Shown here piece after piece: positions 194 to 15,429 of a DNA stretch of 64,000 nt (the first letter of the stretch is position 1; every line of letters begins with the position of its first letter). The notes under the pieces were generated by a model. The model was given only the letters and a program-made list of their open reading frames with translations, had not been told where the DNA came from and did not search any database. Origin of the DNA: a virus; the IMG/VR virus record IMGVR_UViG_3300035701_000016, positions 1-64,000 of that record; one strand, written 5' to 3'. The position numbers and the translations under genes were made by a program.

Positions 194-222
194 TTGTCAT
201 TACGCTTCATTCGTGCTACTAT
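194..222 (+). promoter_or_regulatory. Sigma70-type early promoter P1
   Basis: TTGTCA-17nt-TACTAT with extended TG; spacer TTCATTCGTGC is shared with other promoters. Confidence 0.75.
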
Positions 223-297
223 AAATGTAGCGGCAGCCTGCCGCGAAACGACTAGGGGTTTGAATACCCCGCCAGGACAAACCTAAAGGAGGTTTAC

Positions 298-759
298 ATG
301 TCCACACAAGCTCGGTGTTTAGTTTGTAAAAAGCCACTCACAAGTGGCGATATCGGAGGCACCTGCTCTGCTCACCAGGGCAAGATCCGCCTCTTCGCCA
401 ATACGGCGACCATTGTGCCTGAAGGGTTCCTCAAGATGTCCGTTGTTTGCCGTGCCTACGAGAAGGCTGGTTTCACCACCCGCCAGATCGTCAAAGCCTG
501 CGGCGGCGACGCCTGCACGGAGCAACCGTTCGGCGGAGAAGATCCCAAAGGGCTGTTCTACGTGACCTACGTTGGCAACCGGAAATACTTGGCTCCCGCC
601 ATTCTCACCACCGGCATGGAGCAGTTCAAGAAAGCAACTGCAGCTCCGGCCGAAGCTCCCAAGGCTTTGGTTTCCGGCAAAGACAACGGCAAGGAAGTCA
701 ACGCAATTGCCGTCGCCCTCCAGACCAAGGTTATCAAGGCTCCGGTCTCCGTCAAGTAG
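298..759 (+). CDS. Early protein, paralog of 5812-6330, possibly winged-helix DNA-binding
   Basis: SD AAGGAGG; shares PEG.L.M..VC....AG......A.GGD.C...P...F.V.YVG.RKY..P with 5812-6330. Confidence 0.75.
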   Translation: MSTQARCLVCKKPLTSGDIGGTCSAHQGKIRLFANTATIVPEGFLKMSVVCRAYEKAGFTTRQIVKACGGDACTEQPFGGEDPKGLFYVTYVGNRKYLAPAILTTGMEQFKKATAAPAEAPKALVSGKDNGKEVNAIAVALQTKVIKAPVSVK

Positions 760-761
760 CC

Positions 762-806
762 ATCCAGTATTAGTGAGGTGGGCAAGCGAATAGCCAGCCC
801 ACCTCA
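762..806 (+). ncRNA. Conserved downstream RNA element (ATCCwGTATTAGT + hairpin with GAATA loop), copy 1
   Basis: TGAGGTGGGC/GCCCACCTCA stem; second copy at 6347-6392. Confidence 0.55.
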
Positions 807-830
807 AACCATTTGTTCAAGGAGGTTATC

Positions 831-1031
831 ATGCCTTTGGATCCCAAAGTTTTAGCAGAGTTTGAAAACTCTTGCGACGAAGCAGATAACGATCTGCAAC
901 TCAAGTACGAAAAAATGACTCCTGAGCAACGACAAGGAGCCGACACCTTCCTCGCCTGGTACAAGATGTGGTTTGGGAAATGCACCTACACTCACATCGG
1001 CAAGCATCTCAAGGAGTTTAGGTTTCATTAA
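831..1031 (+). CDS. Hypothetical protein
   Basis: SD AAGGAGG before ATG at 831. Confidence 0.7.
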   Translation: MPLDPKVLAEFENSCDEADNDLQLKYEKMTPEQRQGADTFLAWYKMWFGKCTYTHIGKHLKEFRFH

Positions 1032-1230
1032 TTTGCAAGAAATCGGCGGACGCAGGGTGTCCTCCGCACCCTGAATCCGGATTTGGAGCCTACCGTCTTC
1101 CCCGCTGGCGGTAGGCTCTTCTAGTTTCCCTTTGCTGCGAGTCCCCGTCCTGCCACGAATATCCACTGGCAAGGATGCGAATTCCCAGGAGTGGGAAACA
1201 CCACTCACAATACCACAAAAGGAGGTGTTT

Positions 1231-1506
1231 ATGAGTCTTGAAGAATATAGTTCTTTTGATCTCTACCCCTGTCCAATATGCGGTCAACTGCATGACGAAT
1301 TCGAAGAGGCCTTGATCTGCTGGGATGACTACAATGATACCACCACGATGACTATTTATCTCTGGACTGAGTTTCCGTTCAAGATGGCAGAGTTTAGCAT
1401 GATCATGGCACAGGCCAGGGAAATTCGTGGAAGAGTCACGAGCTATACCACATGGGGATCCACAAATTTCTTGATAAGAACGTCAATTGTGGTAGAATCT
1501 AATTGA
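1231..1506 (+). CDS. Hypothetical protein with CxxC motif
   Basis: SD AAGGAGG before ATG at 1231; CPICG. Confidence 0.65.
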   Translation: MSLEEYSSFDLYPCPICGQLHDEFEEALICWDDYNDTTTMTIYLWTEFPFKMAEFSMIMAQAREIRGRVTSYTTWGSTNFLIRTSIVVESN

Positions 1507-1521
1507 CATGGTATCAAATAC

Positions 1522-1550
1522 TTGTCACAAAGGCTCATTTGTGCTACACT
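1522..1550 (+). promoter_or_regulatory. Sigma70-type early promoter P2
   Basis: TTGTCA-17nt-TACACT, extended TG, spacer CTCATTTGTGC. Confidence 0.75.
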
Positions 1551-1601
1551 ATAACTAGGTAGAACTATATCTGGAAACGATTACAAAGAAAGGAGGTTGC
1601 A

Positions 1602-1703
1602 ATGTTTCTTGAAGGACTTTGGTACGCATTCTGCTTATTTATTACGATAGCTTTGCTGGCATCTCTGTGGGCAGCCTTCAGCCAGCCCTATCATCGTAAA
1701 TGA
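1602..1703 (+). CDS. Small membrane peptide (33 aa)
   Basis: SD AAGGAGG; MFLEGLWYAFCFIITIALLASLWAAFSQPYHRK. Confidence 0.6.
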   Translation: MFLEGLWYAFCLFITIALLASLWAAFSQPYHRK

Positions 1704-1790
1704 TTCCTTGGTTGCATCCTACCCTAGTCCTCCTGGACTACGGTAGGCTAGAGCTAAGGAAGCTCTAAATTATCTAAAGGAGGTATCAAA

Positions 1791-3311
1791 ATGGAAAACC
1801 GAAAGGCAGAGGTTACGGTAGATCCGTCACTGTTCAGTATGGTTGCAAGAACCATGTACAGCTCAGATCCTACCATAATTGTTCCAAGAGAACTTCTGCA
1901 AAATTCTGTGGATGCTTGCAAGAGAGCGGGCGTCATACCAGAGATATCCATGATCATAGAAACTCACTGGTCTTCTACAGAAGGTGAGAGTTGGACATCC
2001 ATTGTTTGTGAAGACAATGGTTGTGGCATGGATCAGGATGAGCTGGTTGACAAATTCTTGAAGCTCGGTGCGTCTTCAAAACGTGGAGATAGCCAGTCTA
2101 CCGGAAAGTTCGGGATTGCTAAAGCGGCAATCATGTCCGGTAAGGATTGGTCTGTTGAAACTAACGAAATAGCCGTAAGTTTTGAAGATGTGCGAGAAGG
2201 CAATCTTGTAAGAGATCTTCCGGAACCCAGAGTAGGAACCAGAGTTTATGTGATGCTAGATAGATATTGCTACAGCAAACAGACAATTGTTCGTCTGATT
2301 GAATCCTCAGAAGTAGATATCAAACTTATCCTCACGGAACGCTCCGATACCTGCTACAATATTGAACACTGTGGGCTTCTGGTCAATCCTCAGAATGAAG
2401 TAGTTCTTGTAGAAGACAAGTTGTGGAAAGGTACATCCATAGAAAAGCTTCCGTCAAACGAAGCAGATGGATATACTTTTGTTCGCTTGAATGGATTGAC
2501 CCAGTTTGAATTAAAAGGCCACTGCTCGGAAAGAGAAACCAATCTTCTCATAGATATGTTTCCTTCTACCGCAGATCCTGGAAATGACGAGTATCCATTC
2601 ACAATGTCCAGAGAAAATCTTCGTGGATCTAGCAAAGACAAGATCGACTCCTGGGTTGACGAGTGCAACAGAAATCCGTACACTACCGATTCCTTGCGAG
2701 AGGATCTTACCAACCAGGAAAAGCAGAATTTCATTCCAGGATATTCTCTGAGGGGCAAACGATCCAGACTTCATGGTGGAACTGAAGAGCAGGATAATGA
2801 TCAAGATAACATTAGAGATTCGAAAATAGTAGATGCTCTAAGAAAGATCAAGAATTATCCCTACGGTACAGATGCCATGAAGTTTATTGACGAAAATGCC
2901 ATCTCTCCTATAATTCGTCTTGACAGATATACGGTAACAGATGAAACCTTCCCTCGTGATTCTAAGATCATGCAGGCATGGGCTATGATGCTAACGTATG
3001 TAGTTGACAATGAAATAAAGTTCGGAGTTGGTTTGATCGGTGCATCTCTAACGACATCTCAGTTAGACACATCTTCCGGAATGTATTTCTTCTCAATCAA
3101 TCCTGGCTTTGTCTGCTTTGAGAAAACTCCGTTCGGTAGAGCTTTGGCTATGTGGGGAATGGCTTCTCATGAAGCTTCTCATCTGCATATTCAAAACCAT
3201 AACGAAAGTTTCACGATGGCAGAGTTGATGGTTCAGCATGAATCTGCGGATGATATCTATCCAATAGTAGCTAAGGTTGCGAGAATTCTATCCGGACCTG
3301 AGTTCTTCTAG
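1791..3311 (+). CDS. GHKL (HSP90/rIIA-like) ATPase with C-terminal HExxH metallopeptidase-like motif
   Basis: RELLQNSVDA (N box), EDNGCGM (G1), GKFGIA (G2), GT (G3); C-terminal HEASHLHIQNHNESF. Confidence 0.8.
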   Translation: MENRKAEVTVDPSLFSMVARTMYSSDPTIIVPRELLQNSVDACKRAGVIPEISMIIETHWSSTEGESWTSIVCEDNGCGMDQDELVDKFLKLGASSKRGDSQSTGKFGIAKAAIMSGKDWSVETNEIAVSFEDVREGNLVRDLPEPRVGTRVYVMLDRYCYSKQTIVRLIESSEVDIKLILTERSDTCYNIEHCGLLVNPQNEVVLVEDKLWKGTSIEKLPSNEADGYTFVRLNGLTQFELKGHCSERETNLLIDMFPSTADPGNDEYPFTMSRENLRGSSKDKIDSWVDECNRNPYTTDSLREDLTNQEKQNFIPGYSLRGKRSRLHGGTEEQDNDQDNIRDSKIVDALRKIKNYPYGTDAMKFIDENAISPIIRLDRYTVTDETFPRDSKIMQAWAMMLTYVVDNEIKFGVGLIGASLTTSQLDTSSGMYFFSINPGFVCFEKTPFGRALAMWGMASHEASHLHIQNHNESFTMAELMVQHESADDIYPIVAKVARILSGPEFF

Positions 3312-3320
3312 GAGGGCAAG

Positions 3321-3416
3321 ATGAATACTAAGAACGATAGCAGATATGAGTTTATACTCATCATGCTGGCTTTGATTCTGTTGTGCTACATCGGCTGTCT
3401 GTCGGTGCATCCATGA
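3321..3416 (+). CDS. Small membrane peptide (31 aa)
   Basis: SD GGAGG; MNTKNDSRYEFILIMLALILLCYIGCLSVHP; ATGA-coupled to the next gene. Confidence 0.5.
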   Translation: MNTKNDSRYEFILIMLALILLCYIGCLSVHP

Positions 3417-3619
3417 ACGCATCAGACAAACCAGACCCAATTCTGCCAGCGGATCTGATCTACCGTGCCTTCAAGGACAAGCACACTGGATTGAACGGTA
3501 TGCCAGTCCCACTCTATAAGATCGGTCTTGAGACCATTACCAAGAGTGAATATTTCCGTAGGGTACTAGTCCTCAAAGTAGCGGCTAAACGAGCCGAACG
3601 AGAAAGAGGGATTCAATGA
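3413..3619 (+). CDS. Hypothetical protein
   Basis: ATGA-coupled on both sides. Confidence 0.6.
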   Translation: MNASDKPDPILPADLIYRAFKDKHTGLNGMPVPLYKIGLETITKSEYFRRVLVLKVAAKRAERERGIQ

Positions 3620-3825
3620 GCGGTGTAGCAGTCATAGCAATAAGAAAACAAGATCTCGAACTCCTTATAGAAAGTCTAATGATGGAATCTACGGCATTAG
3701 GTCACTTTGTAGATAATAAAGTGGGATCTGCAAAATCAATCACTGATGCCAAGGATAAATTTCGAAGAAGTATATTTCTACGGCAGGAGTTAGAGTCCCA
3801 AAGAAGATTGTGGTTTATTGACTAG
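3616..3825 (+). CDS. Hypothetical protein
   Basis: Coupled ORF with SD GAGGG. Confidence 0.6.
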   Translation: MSGVAVIAIRKQDLELLIESLMMESTALGHFVDNKVGSAKSITDAKDKFRRSIFLRQELESQRRLWFID

Positions 3826-3831
3826 ATATTC

Positions 3832-4250
3832 GGCCGGCGGAGTAGACGCAACGAGATTTTTACATCTCCTTTTTCGTAAGGACAGGGCAGGGCTGTCCTC
3901 GGCCACAATCCGGAATAAGCACGGAAGGGTAGCGTGCAGAAATCAGACTTCAATCTGGTTTTCTGACTTGATCAGTCATCTGGTTCAATTCCAGAATTCC
4001 GGTCTCGGTAGAACTGAAGACACGTGGAAATCGTAAGGTGTAACAGAGGTAGAAAAGCGGTATCCAATCCTGCTGAGTACATCGGCGACGGTAGGGATAT
4101 AAGAACCCTCAACGTGAGCGATCCACGATAAAGGACACCAGAAGGTTCTACCGGACTTGATGCGGAAGTCTCTGACTCCAAGGAGCGGAGTATGGTGCGG
4201 TCTCTGACGAGAGACTTTTACTTGATGGTGTAATTTGCACACCGCATCAA
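3832..4250 (+). ncRNA. Structured non-coding RNA block of four consecutive closed domains
   Basis: Closing helices GGCCGG/TCGGCC, CCGGAAT/ATTCCGG, CGGTAGAAC/GTTCTACCG and TTGATGC/GCATCAA; no credible ORF. Confidence 0.55.
3910..4003 (+). ncRNA. Atypical tRNA-like RNA with TCA in the anticodon-like loop
   Basis: Acceptor CCGGAAT/ATTCCGG; D stem GCACG/CGTGC; extended anticodon stem with 6-nt loop CTTCAA; variable arm TGACT/AGTCA; T arm TCTGG-TTCAATT-CCAGA. Confidence 0.65.
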
Positions 4251-4272
4251 TTATATAAGAGGAAAAAAAATT

Positions 4273-4494
4273 ATGTCCAAAAAGAAATCAAATTTGCGAA
4301 GAAAAGATCCACCATGTCTGGGATGTCTACATATGTCAGAATTAGTATGTGATATTTTAGGTATAGTGGATGAAGATTCACTGAAGATATGCAATAGAGC
4401 AGGTTACAAAGAAATTCGTAGTCTAAATAGTAGGACTGGACACTATCATGAGGGTGCTTACTGGACATCAAAAGATAGAGGATATGGACGTTAA
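4273..4494 (+). CDS. Small basic Cys-containing hypothetical protein
   Basis: SD GAGG; CxxC. Confidence 0.55.
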   Translation: MSKKKSNLRRKDPPCLGCLHMSELVCDILGIVDEDSLKICNRAGYKEIRSLNSRTGHYHEGAYWTSKDRGYGR

Positions 4495-4512
4495 ATCAAT
4501 TTATGTCGGGTA

Positions 4513-4541
4513 TTGTTCCGTCGGTTCATTTGTGCTATTAT
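4513..4541 (+). promoter_or_regulatory. Sigma70-type early promoter P3
   Basis: TTGTTC-17nt-TATTAT, spacer TTCATTTGTGC. Confidence 0.75.
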
Positions 4542-4590
4542 AAGTGTAGGCGCATAATGCCACGAAACGACTATACCAAAGGAGGTTACT

Positions 4591-4992
4591 ATGAATGATG
4601 ATCCGAGTAAAGCATGGGATCGCTACTGCCAGCAGCAAGAGGATATAGAGCTCTGGGAGAGTGTTGTAGACGTTGGTGTTGTCATGCAGGAGAGAGGTAT
4701 CGATTTCTCTCCCATAGATGCCAGTAACGACTTCATCTGGTTTATCAACGCCAAGATAACTGACTGCAAATTCTCCACCGACGTTATTACCGGAGAGCGT
4801 GTTTGCATCAACCACCCGACTCTCAAGGCTCCCTGGAACAGAAGTGATGGAGAGATTGACTTAGCTGCTACCGCTGATGCTGTTGTTGAAGCTATCTGTG
4901 TTGCTTCGGGACCTAAGACTCCACCTTTTCCTGAGAATTGGAGTTTACCTCAATCACTTCCGAATCCTCCAGATAACTACGATCCTGCCTAG
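4591..4992 (+). CDS. Hypothetical protein
   Basis: SD AAGGAGG. Confidence 0.75.
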   Translation: MNDDPSKAWDRYCQQQEDIELWESVVDVGVVMQERGIDFSPIDASNDFIWFINAKITDCKFSTDVITGERVCINHPTLKAPWNRSDGEIDLAATADAVVEAICVASGPKTPPFPENWSLPQSLPNPPDNYDPA

Positions 4993-5063
4993 ACTTCCAA
5001 TCTGTTACTGCTCCCCACCCCGAAAAGAGGTGGAGGGCAGGAAGGAGAAAGGAGGTAATTATA

Positions 5064-5441
5064 ATGTCAAGTGAAATAACCAAACTCGAGTCTTATGATG
5101 TAGGCCACCGTATCGTAGTTATGGATACAGATGGCAAGACTGTTCTGGTGATTATCAGAGTAGCTAGATTGAGCAATAGAGAGGTCAATTTGGATATTAG
5201 TTTCTCGGACGGTAGAACGGTGGAGTTTATCCAACAATGGGATAACGGTAGACCAAATCTATCTCAACTGGTGATTGAAGAGATTGTCTCCAGTGTTACT
5301 AACGGATCTCTTACCGTTCAGTCTTCAACTCCTAAGTTGAATAGTGTGATATATCAACAGGAAATTATAGACTCCGACCGAGATCAGAATAGACCTCAAT
5401 ATGGTAACGATGAAGAACGACTCTGTCCAGACTGTGACTGA
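5064..5441 (+). CDS. Hypothetical protein
   Basis: SD AAGGAGG. Confidence 0.7.
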   Translation: MSSEITKLESYDVGHRIVVMDTDGKTVLVIIRVARLSNREVNLDISFSDGRTVEFIQQWDNGRPNLSQLVIEEIVSSVTNGSLTVQSSTPKLNSVIYQQEIIDSDRDQNRPQYGNDEERLCPDCD

Positions 5442-5697
5442 CAGTCCTGGCTATGTAGGTCGTGATAAATTTGTCCAGCTCTGGGATCAGCCAGATGGCT
5501 ATGACTATCTCATGGATCCCAAGCGACGTCGTCGAGAAAGGAGATTTACATCACGGGAAGAAGCTTTACGATACCTTCGGGAAGAAATGTACTATGCGAC
5601 TGACGATATGCGATTCTTCTATTGGTTTCCATATTCTGATGACCTGCCATATCATATCTTAGACGGGTCGCCAGTCGAAAAATTGAAACCAAATTGA
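5410..5697 (+). CDS. Hypothetical protein
   Basis: Overlaps the previous ORF; start uncertain. Confidence 0.55.
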   Translation: MKNDSVQTVTDSPGYVGRDKFVQLWDQPDGYDYLMDPKRRRRERRFTSREEALRYLREEMYYATDDMRFFYWFPYSDDLPYHILDGSPVEKLKPN

Positions 5698-5710
5698 AGA
5701 AAAATAGGGC

Positions 5711-5739
5711 TTGCATTAGTCGTTCATTTGCTGTATAAT
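5711..5739 (+). promoter_or_regulatory. Sigma70-type early promoter P4
   Basis: TTGCAT-17nt-TATAAT, spacer TTCATTTG. Confidence 0.75.
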
Positions 5740-5811
5740 GTATATGTAACTGGGGAGCGACACATTCTAACCCCGACAAAAATCTTGGTTCAAAACGAAA
5801 GGAGTTTCAAA

Positions 5812-6330
5812 ATGGGTGACAATCCTGTTGTAACTGCTCCGGCTGTTGAGCAGAAAGTCGTAAAGGTAAAAGTGGCGAAACCGCCAAAAGAGGCCAAGCC
5901 GCCTCGCCTCGGTAAAGGTTGGACCGAGGAAAAATGGAAAGCACGTCTGGCCGAACTTACAGTCCCTGCAATTCCCGAGGGCTGGCTCAACATGGCCGAT
6001 GTCTGCAAAAAATTCAACGATGCTGGAGTTAAGATCTCCCGTGTGGTTTCGGCCAGCGGTGGTGATCGGTGTGCTAACGAACCCTGGGACGCTGTATTCC
6101 AGGTCAAGTACGTGGGTGGACGTAAGTATCAGTCGCCCGACGTCCTGGTGAAGGGTATGGCTCTTCTGAACGACCCCACATTCCATCCGGTCGTGAGAAT
6201 TGGTCGCAAGAAAGCCACCAACCCCGACGGTACGACCAAAGAACCTGCTCCTAAGGGAGTTAAGGTGAAGGTTGAAATGGACACTAATAAGTCCAAAGTT
6301 TGGGTTGCTCCGACCAGCGATAAGAAATAA
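5812..6330 (+). CDS. Lys-rich early protein, paralog of 298-759
   Basis: SD AAGGAG before ATG 5812; shared core domain; KVVKVKVAKPPK/KGVKVKV basic arms. Confidence 0.8.
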   Translation: MGDNPVVTAPAVEQKVVKVKVAKPPKEAKPPRLGKGWTEEKWKARLAELTVPAIPEGWLNMADVCKKFNDAGVKISRVVSASGGDRCANEPWDAVFQVKYVGGRKYQSPDVLVKGMALLNDPTFHPVVRIGRKKATNPDGTTKEPAPKGVKVKVEMDTNKSKVWVAPTSDKK

Positions 6331-6346
6331 CTGCTCCACCTGCGTG

Positions 6347-6392
6347 ATCCTGTATTAGTATCCCCACTAGCTGAATAAGCCGGTGGGGATAC
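6347..6392 (+). ncRNA. Conserved downstream RNA element, copy 2
   Basis: ATCCTGTATTAGT + GTATCCCCAC/GTGGGGATAC stem with GAATA apical loop. Confidence 0.55.
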
Positions 6393-6416
6393 GCCATTCT
6401 AGAGGAGAATGGGACT

Positions 6417-6701
6417 ATGATGGATAAAAAGACATCCAAGCATGATCTAATGGCAACCTACAATCTCTTAAAGGAAGAGGCCAAAACTAACTCCCACATT
6501 GAAGAAGGTAGGCTGAATAGGGCTTTGGGCATAGCCATGAGAAAAGAGTCGTATGAAAAATACTACACAACTTTTACAGGTTGCACATGTCCTGATCAAG
6601 CCAACAGATCTCAATTTATCTGCAAGCATCGCCTATCCTTCATGTTGGAGCATGGTGATGATATTAGCCTCATGCTATTTGAGGGAACTCCAATTTCTTA
6701 G
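6417..6701 (+). CDS. SWIM zinc-finger protein
   Basis: CTCPD...CKH motif. Confidence 0.75.
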   Translation: MMDKKTSKHDLMATYNLLKEEAKTNSHIEEGRLNRALGIAMRKESYEKYYTTFTGCTCPDQANRSQFICKHRLSFMLEHGDDISLMLFEGTPIS

Positions 6702-6709
6702 GAGGGATT

Positions 6710-6964
6710 ATGTTAATAAATGACGTTAAGAAAGGTATGAAGATCCGTACCAAGGATGGAATTACTGGTACGATGATGGATAATCAGAAGGGTATTATTA
6801 GAACTATACAGATTCCGATGATCTTTGATTCACGGCAGATGGATATAGGAAGCTGCTATGTTGATACCATCCGGTGGGTCATGGTGAAGAATGAATGGGA
6901 AAAAGTTGAGCTGTCTGAGGCTAATCGTAAACAGCTCTCCAAAATTCCATCAAGTTTTCGGTAG
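6710..6964 (+). CDS. Hypothetical protein (SH3-like beta fold suspected)
   Basis: SD GGAGG; DVKKGMKIRTKDGITG. Confidence 0.7.
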   Translation: MLINDVKKGMKIRTKDGITGTMMDNQKGIIRTIQIPMIFDSRQMDIGSCYVDTIRWVMVKNEWEKVELSEANRKQLSKIPSSFR

Positions 6965-7283
6965 GAATAACCGCAGATTCAGGATATACTTTTGGCTGAT
7001 TCTAATATTATGGGAAATAGTAATATGCTCAACCCCAAGGCAAGATGTCCGTACGGATCTGCCCCCTCCAAAAAGTACATTAGTCGCTACTGCCACGACT
7101 AATGACTGTCATAACAAACTGGATCCTCTCATATATAGTTTCCTAGCCGGTAATGGAGATAGAGGTATCTACGATGCGGCTCTTAGATGCAAGGATCCAG
7201 AAGTTGCGATAAAAGTAGAATGGGGGTTGGCGAAGAGAGATTATTTAGTTCTTCAGAGGTTGATAAAAAGACAGACTCCATGA
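6891..7283 (+). CDS. Hypothetical protein with hydrophobic segment
   Basis: Open frame; start uncertain; converges on 7183-7830. Confidence 0.4.
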   Translation: MNGKKLSCLRLIVNSSPKFHQVFGRNNRRFRIYFWLILILWEIVICSTPRQDVRTDLPPPKSTLVATATTNDCHNKLDPLIYSFLAGNGDRGIYDAALRCKDPEVAIKVEWGLAKRDYLVLQRLIKRQTP

Positions 7284-7830
7284 AATTTATGGAGTCTTTC
7301 TTTATTCTCTTGGCAAGACTTTCAATTGTCCCTTCTTCCAGACCTACGGTTTCATCAACACATGGGTCCAGAGATTGCAGATATCCATATGCGTGATCAC
7401 AACATATGTGTTCAGACTCTGTACAGTTGCGATAGTCAGGAGAAAGATCTCTTCTCCATAATCTTGAGTCACAGGGTCTACCGTTGTCTAAATCGAGTAA
7501 TGCTTGCAGTATCGTCTGGAATAGTATTTGTCTAAGAAATTCCCCATCACAATCAGTTTCTCGGCGTAAACCTGATGATGGACTTATTCCTCTCATCAAG
7601 TACCATAGATCTACTCCAAGGTTGGGACTACCGTAGAATGGAGAGATCAGATCTTGATCTTTGAGGTCATGCAGAATATCCAGGGGAGAATTCCAGCAGT
7701 TCACAAAGTTGGTTATATCTGTATGAAACGTTACTGTTCCTGCGGCAGCATTCACCATTCCTCTATTAGTTATTATCCAACAATGAAGATAGTTTAGCCT
7801 GACAGATCTCTTTTGTTTCCAGTTCAGCAT
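7183..7830 (-). CDS. Hypothetical protein
   Basis: SD AAGGAGG upstream on the minus strand; 215 aa. Confidence 0.65.
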   Translation of the reverse strand: MLNWKQKRSVRLNYLHCWIITNRGMVNAAAGTVTFHTDITNFVNCWNSPLDILHDLKDQDLISPFYGSPNLGVDLWYLMRGISPSSGLRRETDCDGEFLRQILFQTILQALLDLDNGRPCDSRLWRRDLSPDYRNCTESEHICCDHAYGYLQSLDPCVDETVGLEEGTIESLAKRIKKDSINFMESVFLSTSEELNNLSSPTPILLLSQLLDPCI

Positions 7831-11939: not shown

Positions 11940-12260
11940 CTATAATAACCTTCTCATTTCCTTTGAAGACTTGATCTTAGACTTACTTTTCTTCTTGCCA
12001 GGATTTACGGGAATATGATGATAAGGATTGCAACAGACACTAGTCTCACAAGTATGCACAAGATCAAATCCATGAGGAATAGGTCCAACGGTAAGCTCAT
12101 AAGCGAGTCTGTTACCCGCCATGAGCTTACCGTTGACTGCTACCGAGCCTATTCTGGTATGACTTCCACTCCAGGATATCCAAGGCCAACACTTGTCCTT
12201 ATCCTGGACATAGATGTGTCTCCAAAATCTACGGATTTCCTGCTCGGTCATCTGGATCAT
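11940..12260 (-). CDS. HNH endonuclease (short, possibly degenerate)
   Basis: RFWRH...CWPW...RLAYELTVGPIP...LVHTCETSVCCNPYH. Confidence 0.8.
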   Translation of the reverse strand: MIQMTEQEIRRFWRHIYVQDKDKCWPWISWSGSHTRIGSVAVNGKLMAGNRLAYELTVGPIPHGFDLVHTCETSVCCNPYHHIPVNPGKKKSKSKIKSSKEMRRLL

Positions 12261-15325: not shown

Positions 15326-15355
15326 TTTAACTCCTTACTAACAGATTTGTTACAG

Positions 15356-15429
15356 TGTCCCCGGTGAGACTCGAACTCACAACCTACAGATTAGAAGTCT
15401 GTTGATCTATCCAGTTGATCTACAAGGAC
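15356..15429 (-). tRNA. tRNA-Arg (anticodon TCT)
   Basis: Canonical cloverleaf: GTCCTTG/CGGGGAC, GATC/GATC D arm, ACAGA-CTTCTAA-TCTGT, GTGAG-TTCGAGT-CTCAC; CCA not encoded. Confidence 0.95.

Follow-up and report, generated by a model that had tools for sequence, protein, structure and literature searches.

A candidate polycistronic array of T4/T5-type stable RNAs in the early operon of a sediment siphophage

Stable RNAs of phages T4 and T5 and the gap at 3826-4272

The closest described counterparts of the element considered here are the small stable RNAs of bacteriophages T5 and T4. In the T5 record AY543070, tRNA-His, RNAIII (106 nt), RNAI (107 nt) and RNA1 (144 nt) are contiguous, only 0-4 nt apart, and RNA2, RNAIV and RNA2H are annotated as well; RNA1 and RNA2 carry the label "tRNA-like stable RNA with unknown functions". 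In the T4 annotation, tRNA-Arg, rnaD and rnaC lie 1-6 nt apart, with rnaD (species 2, 119 nt) placed directly after tRNA-Arg; rnaC (species 1, 139 nt) is likewise a small stable RNA of unknown function. The T4 stable RNAs are matured by the tRNA-processing machinery. The element in question is an array of four structured domains, named D1 to D4, at positions 3832 to 4250 on the plus strand of the IMG/VR virus record IMGVR_UViG_3300035701_000016. The window that was analyzed, and to which all coordinates refer, is the first 64 kb (64,000 nucleotides) of this 75,103-bp record, which has direct terminal repeats.

The entire array is contained in a gap of 447 nt (3826..4272, plus strand) that is poor in open reading frames (ORFs) and lies in the early operon between ORF 3616-3825 and ORF 4273-4494 of the ORF list. 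Judged by its anatomy, the array is the same kind of object as the T4 and T5 stable RNAs, and a new orphan instance of it. In the preferred reading, held with about even confidence, the gap is a polycistron of small structured RNAs that do not decode and belong to the T4/T5 "tRNA-like" or "stable" kind. An earlier sequence-only reading of the window had proposed an undescribed multi-domain phage non-coding RNA or, alternatively, a polycistron of tRNA mimics. The label "undescribed" was too strong, since abutting tRNA-like stable RNAs are annotated in both T4 and T5. Its second suggestion fits best: D2 (16.1 bits with a tRNA-Leu model), weakly D1, and the tight spacing agree with it, while D3 and D4, which are without tRNA similarity, do not.

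The likeness extends to individual domains. The T5 stable RNAs are, as in the array, abutting self-closed RNA genes of 100-170 nt with unknown function, and the T4 and T5 RNAs likewise fold into self-closed domains with several hairpins. In T5 RNA1, a foreign insert is flanked by a D arm of the Leu type and a canonical T arm, both of which D2 also has; the score of RNA1 with the tRNA-Leu model was 32.9 bits, compared to 16.1 bits for D2. In T4 rnaC, as in D2, the closing stem adjoins a canonical T arm, and rnaC reached 16.0 bits with the same model. In phage SPP1, of which positions 24000-44010 (half of the genome) were covered, a tRNA-Leu model gave no match. T5 RNAIII and RNAIV are, like D4, long-closure domains with three hairpins.

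In contrast, the T5 RNAs lie inside a large canonical tRNA cluster and T4 rnaC and rnaD at the end of one, whereas the array stands alone between early protein genes, with no canonical tRNA within 11 kb. The insert of T5 RNA1 is structured, whereas D2 keeps a variable arm and a plain rod. The T5 stable RNAs have been observed experimentally, whereas the array is known here from sequence alone, and no sequence similarity exists between the T4 or T5 RNAs and the array. With respect to the marks that define the T4/T5 type, the spacing of the array (4, 2 and 2 nt) falls within the tight abutment of 0-6 nt, and a tRNA frame with a replaced or unusable anticodon arm is present in D2, marginal in D1 and absent from D3 and D4.

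Anatomy and folding of the four domains

D2 (3910..4003, plus strand) folds as a cloverleaf. Its acceptor stem (3910-3916/3996-4002) is the 7-bp helix CCGGAAU/AUUCCGG, and its D arm (3919-3923/3933-3937) has 5 bp and the 9-nt, GG-containing, Leu-type loop GAAGGGUAG. The variable hairpin (3964-3968/3974-3978) has 5 bp, and the T arm (3979-3983/3991-3995) is of the CUGG type, with a G-C closing pair and the canonical loop UUCAAUU. The discriminator is U4003, and no CCA is encoded. The canonical combination of a 7-bp acceptor stem and a 5-bp T stem with a UUCRANY loop and the G53-C61 pair was found in D2 alone.

The anticodon-arm position of D2 is occupied by a rod of 9 bp (3939-3947/3954-3962) with the loop CUUCAA. 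A canonical anticodon arm has 5 bp, a 7-nt loop, U33 and a purine at position 37, and D2, with 9 bp and 6 nt, departs from this pattern. If the last A-U pair of the rod is open, the loop becomes the 8-nt ACUUCAAU with C at the U33 position; it is never 7 nt long. Because of the 9-bp rod and the missing 7-nt anticodon loop, D2 is not expected to decode normally. It went undetected by ARAGORN at default settings and at Rfam gathering thresholds. Acceptance by ARAGORN required either a 90% threshold and a forced fold or the treatment of 10 nt as an intron, which points to a tRNA-like frame with the anticodon arm as the deviating part.

A covariance model of tRNA-Leu was built from three genes, those of T5, T4 and a Leptonemataceae metagenome-assembled genome (MAG). 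D2 aligned to it from end to end with 16.1 bits and an E-value of 3.5e-4 in 701 nt (filters off), the anticodon region appearing as an insertion; the E-value is estimated at about 0.03 if scaled to the whole window, and D2 is lost with default filters. The D-loop and T-loop words of the genuine tRNA-Leu(UAA) of the Leptonemataceae MAG are identical to those of D2. Compared to class II tRNA-Leu (RF00005), D2 shares the 7-bp acceptor, the D loop, the variable hairpin and the T arm GG-UUCAAUU-CC; it differs in the 9-bp/6-nt anticodon arm, a 5-bp D stem, A in place of U8 and a discriminator U instead of A. On these features, D2 is best described as a real tRNA body with a class II, leucine-type upper part (acceptor, D, variable and T arms). 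Since all of its base pairs are intact (31/31) and the rod needed extra pairs compared to a tRNA, selection rather than decay is argued for.

D1 (3832..3905, plus strand) comprises a 73-nt degenerate cloverleaf and the discriminator A3905, closed by the stem 3832-3836/3900-3904. Its D-like arm (3837-3839/3847-3849; 3 bp, loop GAGUAGA) lines up with the D arms of tRNA-Leu and T5 RNA1. The next arm (3853-3857/3864-3868) has 5 bp and the 6-nt loop UUUUAC in place of a canonical 7-nt anticodon loop, and the arm in the T position (3879-3885/3893-3899) has 7 bp and the non-canonical loop GGCAGGG. Pair probabilities in the full transcript ranged from 0.86 to 0.99. The alignment of D1 to the tRNA-Leu model was full-length but weak (7.9 bits, E 0.06), and the sequence of D1 gives a degenerate, weak cloverleaf whose D arm is of the Leu type. 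The last 12 nt of D1 and D2 form the 3' strands of two stacked helices, of 5+7 and 7+5 bp, respectively. A 12-bp acceptor/T minihelix is the length measured by RNase P, RNase Z and the CCA-adding enzyme.

D3 (4006..4154, plus strand) is a domain of 148 nt plus one following base, closed by a perfect 9-bp inverted repeat (4006-4014/4145-4153) with pair probabilities of 0.97-1.0. Its interior is branched, and the inner helix (4023-4028/4122-4127) has a pair probability of mostly about 0.9, with 0.69 at one end. An unpaired 3' segment of 16-17 nt holds ACACC, which is complementary to GGUGU at 4037-4041; this is complementarity only, and a putative pseudoknot could form there.

D4 (4157..4250, plus strand) is a 94-nt four-way junction with a perfect 9-bp closure (4157-4165/4242-4250) and three hairpins, with pair probabilities of 0.68-1.0. 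One of the hairpins, GGUCUCU-GACG-AGAGACU (4199-4216, plus strand), is a terminator-like match. The 9-mer GTCTCTGAC occurs twice in D4 as a direct repeat, at 4168 and 4200. The helix AAGTCTCT/AGAGACTT that had been proposed in D4 has an ensemble probability near 0, the local hairpin 4199-4216 being favored, and the same value was obtained for a 5-bp arm GGTGT/ACACC in D4.

The minimum free energy (MFE) fold of 3832-4250 consists of four self-closed domains separated by 2-6 unpaired bases (-142.4 kcal/mol, z -2.94, 0/100 shuffles), and so recovered the four abutting domains that had been read from the letters; the helices named in that reading are present in the sequence and in the inverted-repeat list. 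When each domain was folded alone, z-scores against dinucleotide shuffles were -2.66, -3.84, -2.78 and -4.03 for D1, D2, D3 and D4, respectively. The shuffle control that had been suggested thus came out in favor of structure, both for the whole region and for each domain. Pair probabilities computed over the full 447-nt transcript were mostly 0.8-1.0 for the five helices of D2 and for the helices that close the domains. The spacers between D1 and D2, D2 and D3, and D3 and D4 measure 4, 2 and 2 nt, counted after the one-base discriminator.

A further statistic concerns the closing helices. The 64-kb window contains 43 perfect closers of at least 9 bp with a span of 60-170 nt, and those of D3 and D4 are the only abutting pair, compared to 0.05 such pairs per 64 kb expected from shuffles. 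This statistic is stronger than the folding z-scores and independent of them. Folding energy alone gives moderate support, and the specific anatomy weighs more.

Relatives, contrary evidence and rival explanations

By sequence criteria, the gap 3826-4272 holds no credible gene. The overlapping ORFs encode 72 aa on the plus strand and 43, 69 and 85 aa on the minus strand, with TTG or GTG as start codons. PHROGs returned no family match for any of the four, and the 85-aa minus-strand ORF had no shared words or candidate homologue among 5.8 billion proteins; a codon-usage score did not separate the overlapping ORFs from real small genes. A conserved overlapping ORF had been named beforehand as evidence that would speak against an RNA element, and none was found in these searches.

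The Rfam search that had been recommended identified no known family in the array: no match reached the gathering score, those at E ≤ 10 were at chance level, and the weak best match was tRNA-Sec. No self-cleaving ribozyme, riboswitch, T-box or leader family was matched in Rfam. Transfer-messenger RNA was not detected even at an 80% ARAGORN threshold, and no domain has a G3-U70 pair. For bacterial Y RNA (YrlA-type), there was no TROVE domain in the 75-kb genome and no Rfam match.

Sequence relatives were sought in several collections. The blastn search against 50,697 phage records (901 nt, and D2 alone) gave no real match, and a 15-mer scan of IMG/VR gave only chance matches in unrelated coding genes. 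There were no matches for the D-loop/T-loop pattern in IMG/VR, for a 23-mer in JGI metagenomes or for a 21-mer in GTDB genomes. A looser pattern in GTDB genomes had seven matches, six by chance and one in a real tRNA-Leu.

Relatives of neighboring genes were used to locate comparable early regions. Relatives of the GHKL protein (1791-3311) reach at most 45% identity, and at their four full-length IMG/VR loci the array was not found, the gaps there resembling small genes. ORF 5728-6330 had no close relative. The best relatives of the primase (53-67% identity) have counterparts of 5728-6330, 6417-6701 and 7183-7830. In the stretches compared on the upstream side of these shared genes, small ORFs are tightly packed, and neither a GHKL gene nor a gap of 400 nt is present. 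The compared parts of two relatives (L146:19400-22499 and L145:9500-15412) lack the GHKL gene, the RNA array and the genes at 4273-5697. From these comparisons, early-region gene content turns over fast among relatives, and the array is an orphan there. No homologue of the array was found in any of the collections searched.

Several observations weigh against the reading of the gap as a stable-RNA array. The lack of a homologue, of covariation and of conservation is the main weakness of every functional reading, and in the stretches compared, neither G002 nor the 67%-identity contig L146 carries the array in its early region, where coding is dense. D3 and D4 show no similarity to tRNA or to Rfam families (tRNA-Leu model and Rfam), and the model scores are low even for D2 and D1. 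The 7-nt loops of the presumptive T arms of D1 and D4 are non-canonical, and D3 has no such arm. The 7+5 acceptor/T geometry that had been described for D4 can form, but it is not the favored fold: it costs +3.1 kcal/mol compared to the MFE structure of 9-bp closure and three hairpins, and its ensemble probability is near 0.

The folding statistics have their limits as well. The domain borders were fitted to the fold post hoc. When 150-nt windows were taken without regard to these borders, those of the region (z -0.3 to -2.9) fell outside the top 25, a set made up mostly of long perfect hairpins (background over 38 kb: mean z -0.62, standard deviation 1.34). The 419-nt window, with z -3.2, was equalled by 2 of 50 other windows, which places it in about the top 4% of the genome (background mean z -0.97, standard deviation 1.40). 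No canonical tRNA adjoins the array, tRNA-Arg being 11 kb away on the opposite strand, and a CCA-adding enzyme, Ro60 (TROVE) and RtcB were not found in the 75-kb phage genome.

Some of these points would also suit relics of a former tRNA cluster drifting without function, with D1 and D2 as pseudo-tRNAs and D3 and D4 as unrelated leftover hairpins. The absence of the array from the nearest relatives in the stretches compared, the degeneracy of D1 (7.9 bits), the missing adjacent tRNA and the fact that nothing shows conservation are all in keeping with decay. Neutral decay, however, breaks stems, and here they are perfect (31/31 pairs in D2, 9/9 in the closures of both D3 and D4). Conversion of an arm of 5 bp with a 7-nt loop to a perfect 9-bp rod requires several coordinated changes, and a dead spacer of 447 nt would be unusual in a genome with 92% ORF coverage. 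Relics are regarded as unlikely.

A somewhat fainter possibility is a cis-acting leader, in which D4, perhaps together with D3, would act as an attenuator of the downstream genes. D4 contains an SD-like (Shine-Dalgarno-like) AAGGAG, a 6-nt spacer and a mini-ORF of 13 codons from ATG 4191 to TAA 4230-4232 (site 4179-4232), which runs through the terminator-like hairpin 4199-4216 and its UUUU. The spacing of AAGGAG and ATG is ideal, the duplicated GUCUCUGAC offers an alternative 8-bp partner for the 3' strand of the hairpin, and the array ends 7 nt before the ribosome-binding site of the next gene. However, UUUUAC makes a poor U-run, the probability of the alternative helix is near 0, the ribosome-binding site of the next gene is not sequestered, and no riboswitch, T-box or leader family is matched. 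The combination of SD and ATG, spotted post hoc, has an estimated chance of about 2-3% in 420 nt, and D1 and D2 would be left unexplained.

It is very improbable that the other strand or the DNA itself is the functional element, either through an antisense RNA from a promoter-like site (4279->4250) or through inverted repeats serving as protein-binding or recombination sites. The minus strand does carry TGGACA-18-TATAAT (4250-4279, 11/12 match), from which antisense transcripts would begin at the 3' edge of D4 and run into the array, and inverted repeats fold on both strands, with minus-strand z-scores of D1, D2 and D4 that are also low. However, the plus strand is favored by 2-8 kcal/mol in every domain, D3 is not significant on the minus strand (z -1.33), and the canonical T loop and GG-containing D loop of D2 read correctly only on the plus strand. 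The promoter-like words sit in the AT-rich ribosome-binding site of a plus-strand gene, and no target-site duplications flank the repeats.

The cloverleaf at 3910-4003 had been read as a UCA cloverleaf. The cloverleaf itself is upheld by the tRNA-Leu alignment; decoding of UCA is not. A working recoding tRNA, be it an opal (UGA) suppressor, a tRNA of the selenocysteine kind or one that reads four bases through the 8-nt loop, is hardly credible, even though UCA lies within CUUCAA, resembling the tRNA-Sec loop CUUCAAA, and the best Rfam match, a weak one, is tRNA-Sec (RF01852), which resembles D2 in its long variable arm and extended D stem. The score was 17.9 bits (E 1.6), far under the cut-off of 47 bits. 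tRNA-Sec has an 8/5 stack, a D stem of 6 bp with a 4-nt loop and a 7-nt UCA loop, whereas D2 has 7/5, 5 bp with 9 nt, and a loop of 6 or 8 nt, with C at the U33 position in the latter case, on a 9-bp stem.

Stop-codon usage leads to the same rejection. TGA ends 21 of 58 long ORFs, and TGA, TAG and TAA are used about equally. With any stop codon read as sense, ORF coverage rose only from 92% to 95%, and long ORFs did not become meaningfully longer. TGA is accordingly a normal stop, stop-codon recoding was rejected, and a UCA suppressor would have no visible job, since the genome shows no stop recoding.

That an ordinary intergenic spacer happens to fold well is just as hard to credit: 2 of 50 other 419-nt windows fold equally well compared to shuffles and there is no evidence of conservation, but a complete cloverleaf with canonical T loop, Leu-type D loop and perfect stems is improbable by chance, as is the abutment of two perfect 9-bp closers (0.05 such pairs per 64 kb expected) in an array that exactly tiles a rare long ORF-poor gap.

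Possible processing and role, and the genome setting

If the gap does encode an array of stable RNAs, it would be co-transcribed with the early operon, because the search for a promoter or terminator belonging to the array gave nothing convincing. Cuts at the 2-4-nt spacers and borders would be made by host RNase P, together with RNase Z or 3' exonucleases, and CCA would be added. Cleavage would release four stable RNAs and part the upstream from the downstream mRNA, which would then begin about 20 nt before its start codon. If processed in this way, the locus would be an example of tRNA-type punctuation of phage mRNA.

Once released, the tRNA look-alikes might attach to tRNA-binding proteins of the host. 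On the modeled fold, D2 has a sealed anticodon and an intact elbow, which suggests a tRNA mimic that occupies such proteins. The leading guess, and the weakest step, is that the RNAs serve as decoys or competitors for tRNA-cutting defense nucleases or for tRNA-processing enzymes. Put together, the proposal that the four domains are early effector RNAs cut by host RNase P and RNase Z, and that D2 and its neighbors serve as decoys for, or inhibitors of, a host tRNA-directed defense nuclease or tRNA-handling enzyme, is a doubtful one. The proposed function has no direct support, and much less confidence is placed in it than in the assignment of the kind.

Phages use real tRNAs to escape tRNA-cutting defenses (PMC10264068, PMC11555353). 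In the literature on phage tRNAs as counter-defense, no account of sealed-anticodon mimics or non-decoding decoys was found. If true, the proposal would describe a counter-defense made of RNA, not protein, and a possible purpose of the T4 and T5 stable RNAs. The T4/T5-type design, with head-to-tail self-closed RNAs and a tRNA body lacking a usable anticodon, is seen here in an unrelated, uncultured sediment siphophage, and in an early operon instead of a tRNA cluster. The practical value is limited, as the array is an orphan without relatives or host and one more instance of the open T4/T5 question.

The phage encodes a tape-measure protein, a family A DNA polymerase and an AEP primase-helicase, from which it was assigned to the siphovirus type. 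Its sequence is present in public reads of two sediment metagenomes; both are DNA runs, and no RNA run was listed. The two runs are identical in sequence, so that there is no variation to analyze. The plus-strand block at about 200-7300 comprises the early genes, and the remaining genes lie on the minus strand. ORFs cover 92% of the genome under code 11.

The gene that follows the array has the ribosome-binding site AAGAGGA, a good one, 9 nt upstream of the ATG of ORF 4273-4494 (4257..4275 with the ATG, plus strand; sequence and translation). The site begins 7 nt beyond the end of D4 and is not sequestered by the array. The encoded protein has a basic N-terminus and a CxxC motif and is without family; the protein atlas gave no lead on this 73-aa protein, which it lists only from residue 21 (start 4333), a later ATG chosen by some gene callers. 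The start at 4273 has the better ribosome-binding site. Neighboring proteins are also without family, the sole exception being the GHKL-ATPase at 1791-3311, which has a weak rIIA-like match.

The only canonical tRNA detected, by default ARAGORN and at the Rfam gathering score, was tRNA-Arg(UCU) at 15355-15429, and relaxed ARAGORN called no tRNA-like neighbor beside it. In a primase relative (about 62% identity), the relaxed ARAGORN call at L118:5218-5313 / L147:13218-13313 is a tRNA-like gene of 96 nt whose anticodon loop (uggg) has 8 nt; it lies 6 nt upstream of tRNA-Arg(UCU). A "tRNA-Thr(ggt)" called in the window at 5241-5327, inside ORF 5064-5441 (relaxed ARAGORN, 88% threshold), is probably a false positive.

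The strongest-folding 150-nt windows in the first 38 kb were 12076-12225 and 1051-1200. A hairpin that is long and almost perfect lies in the former at about 12086-12135 (z -5.7 on the plus and -7.1 on the minus strand); the latter, in the early region, holds several GC-rich hairpins (z -5.1).

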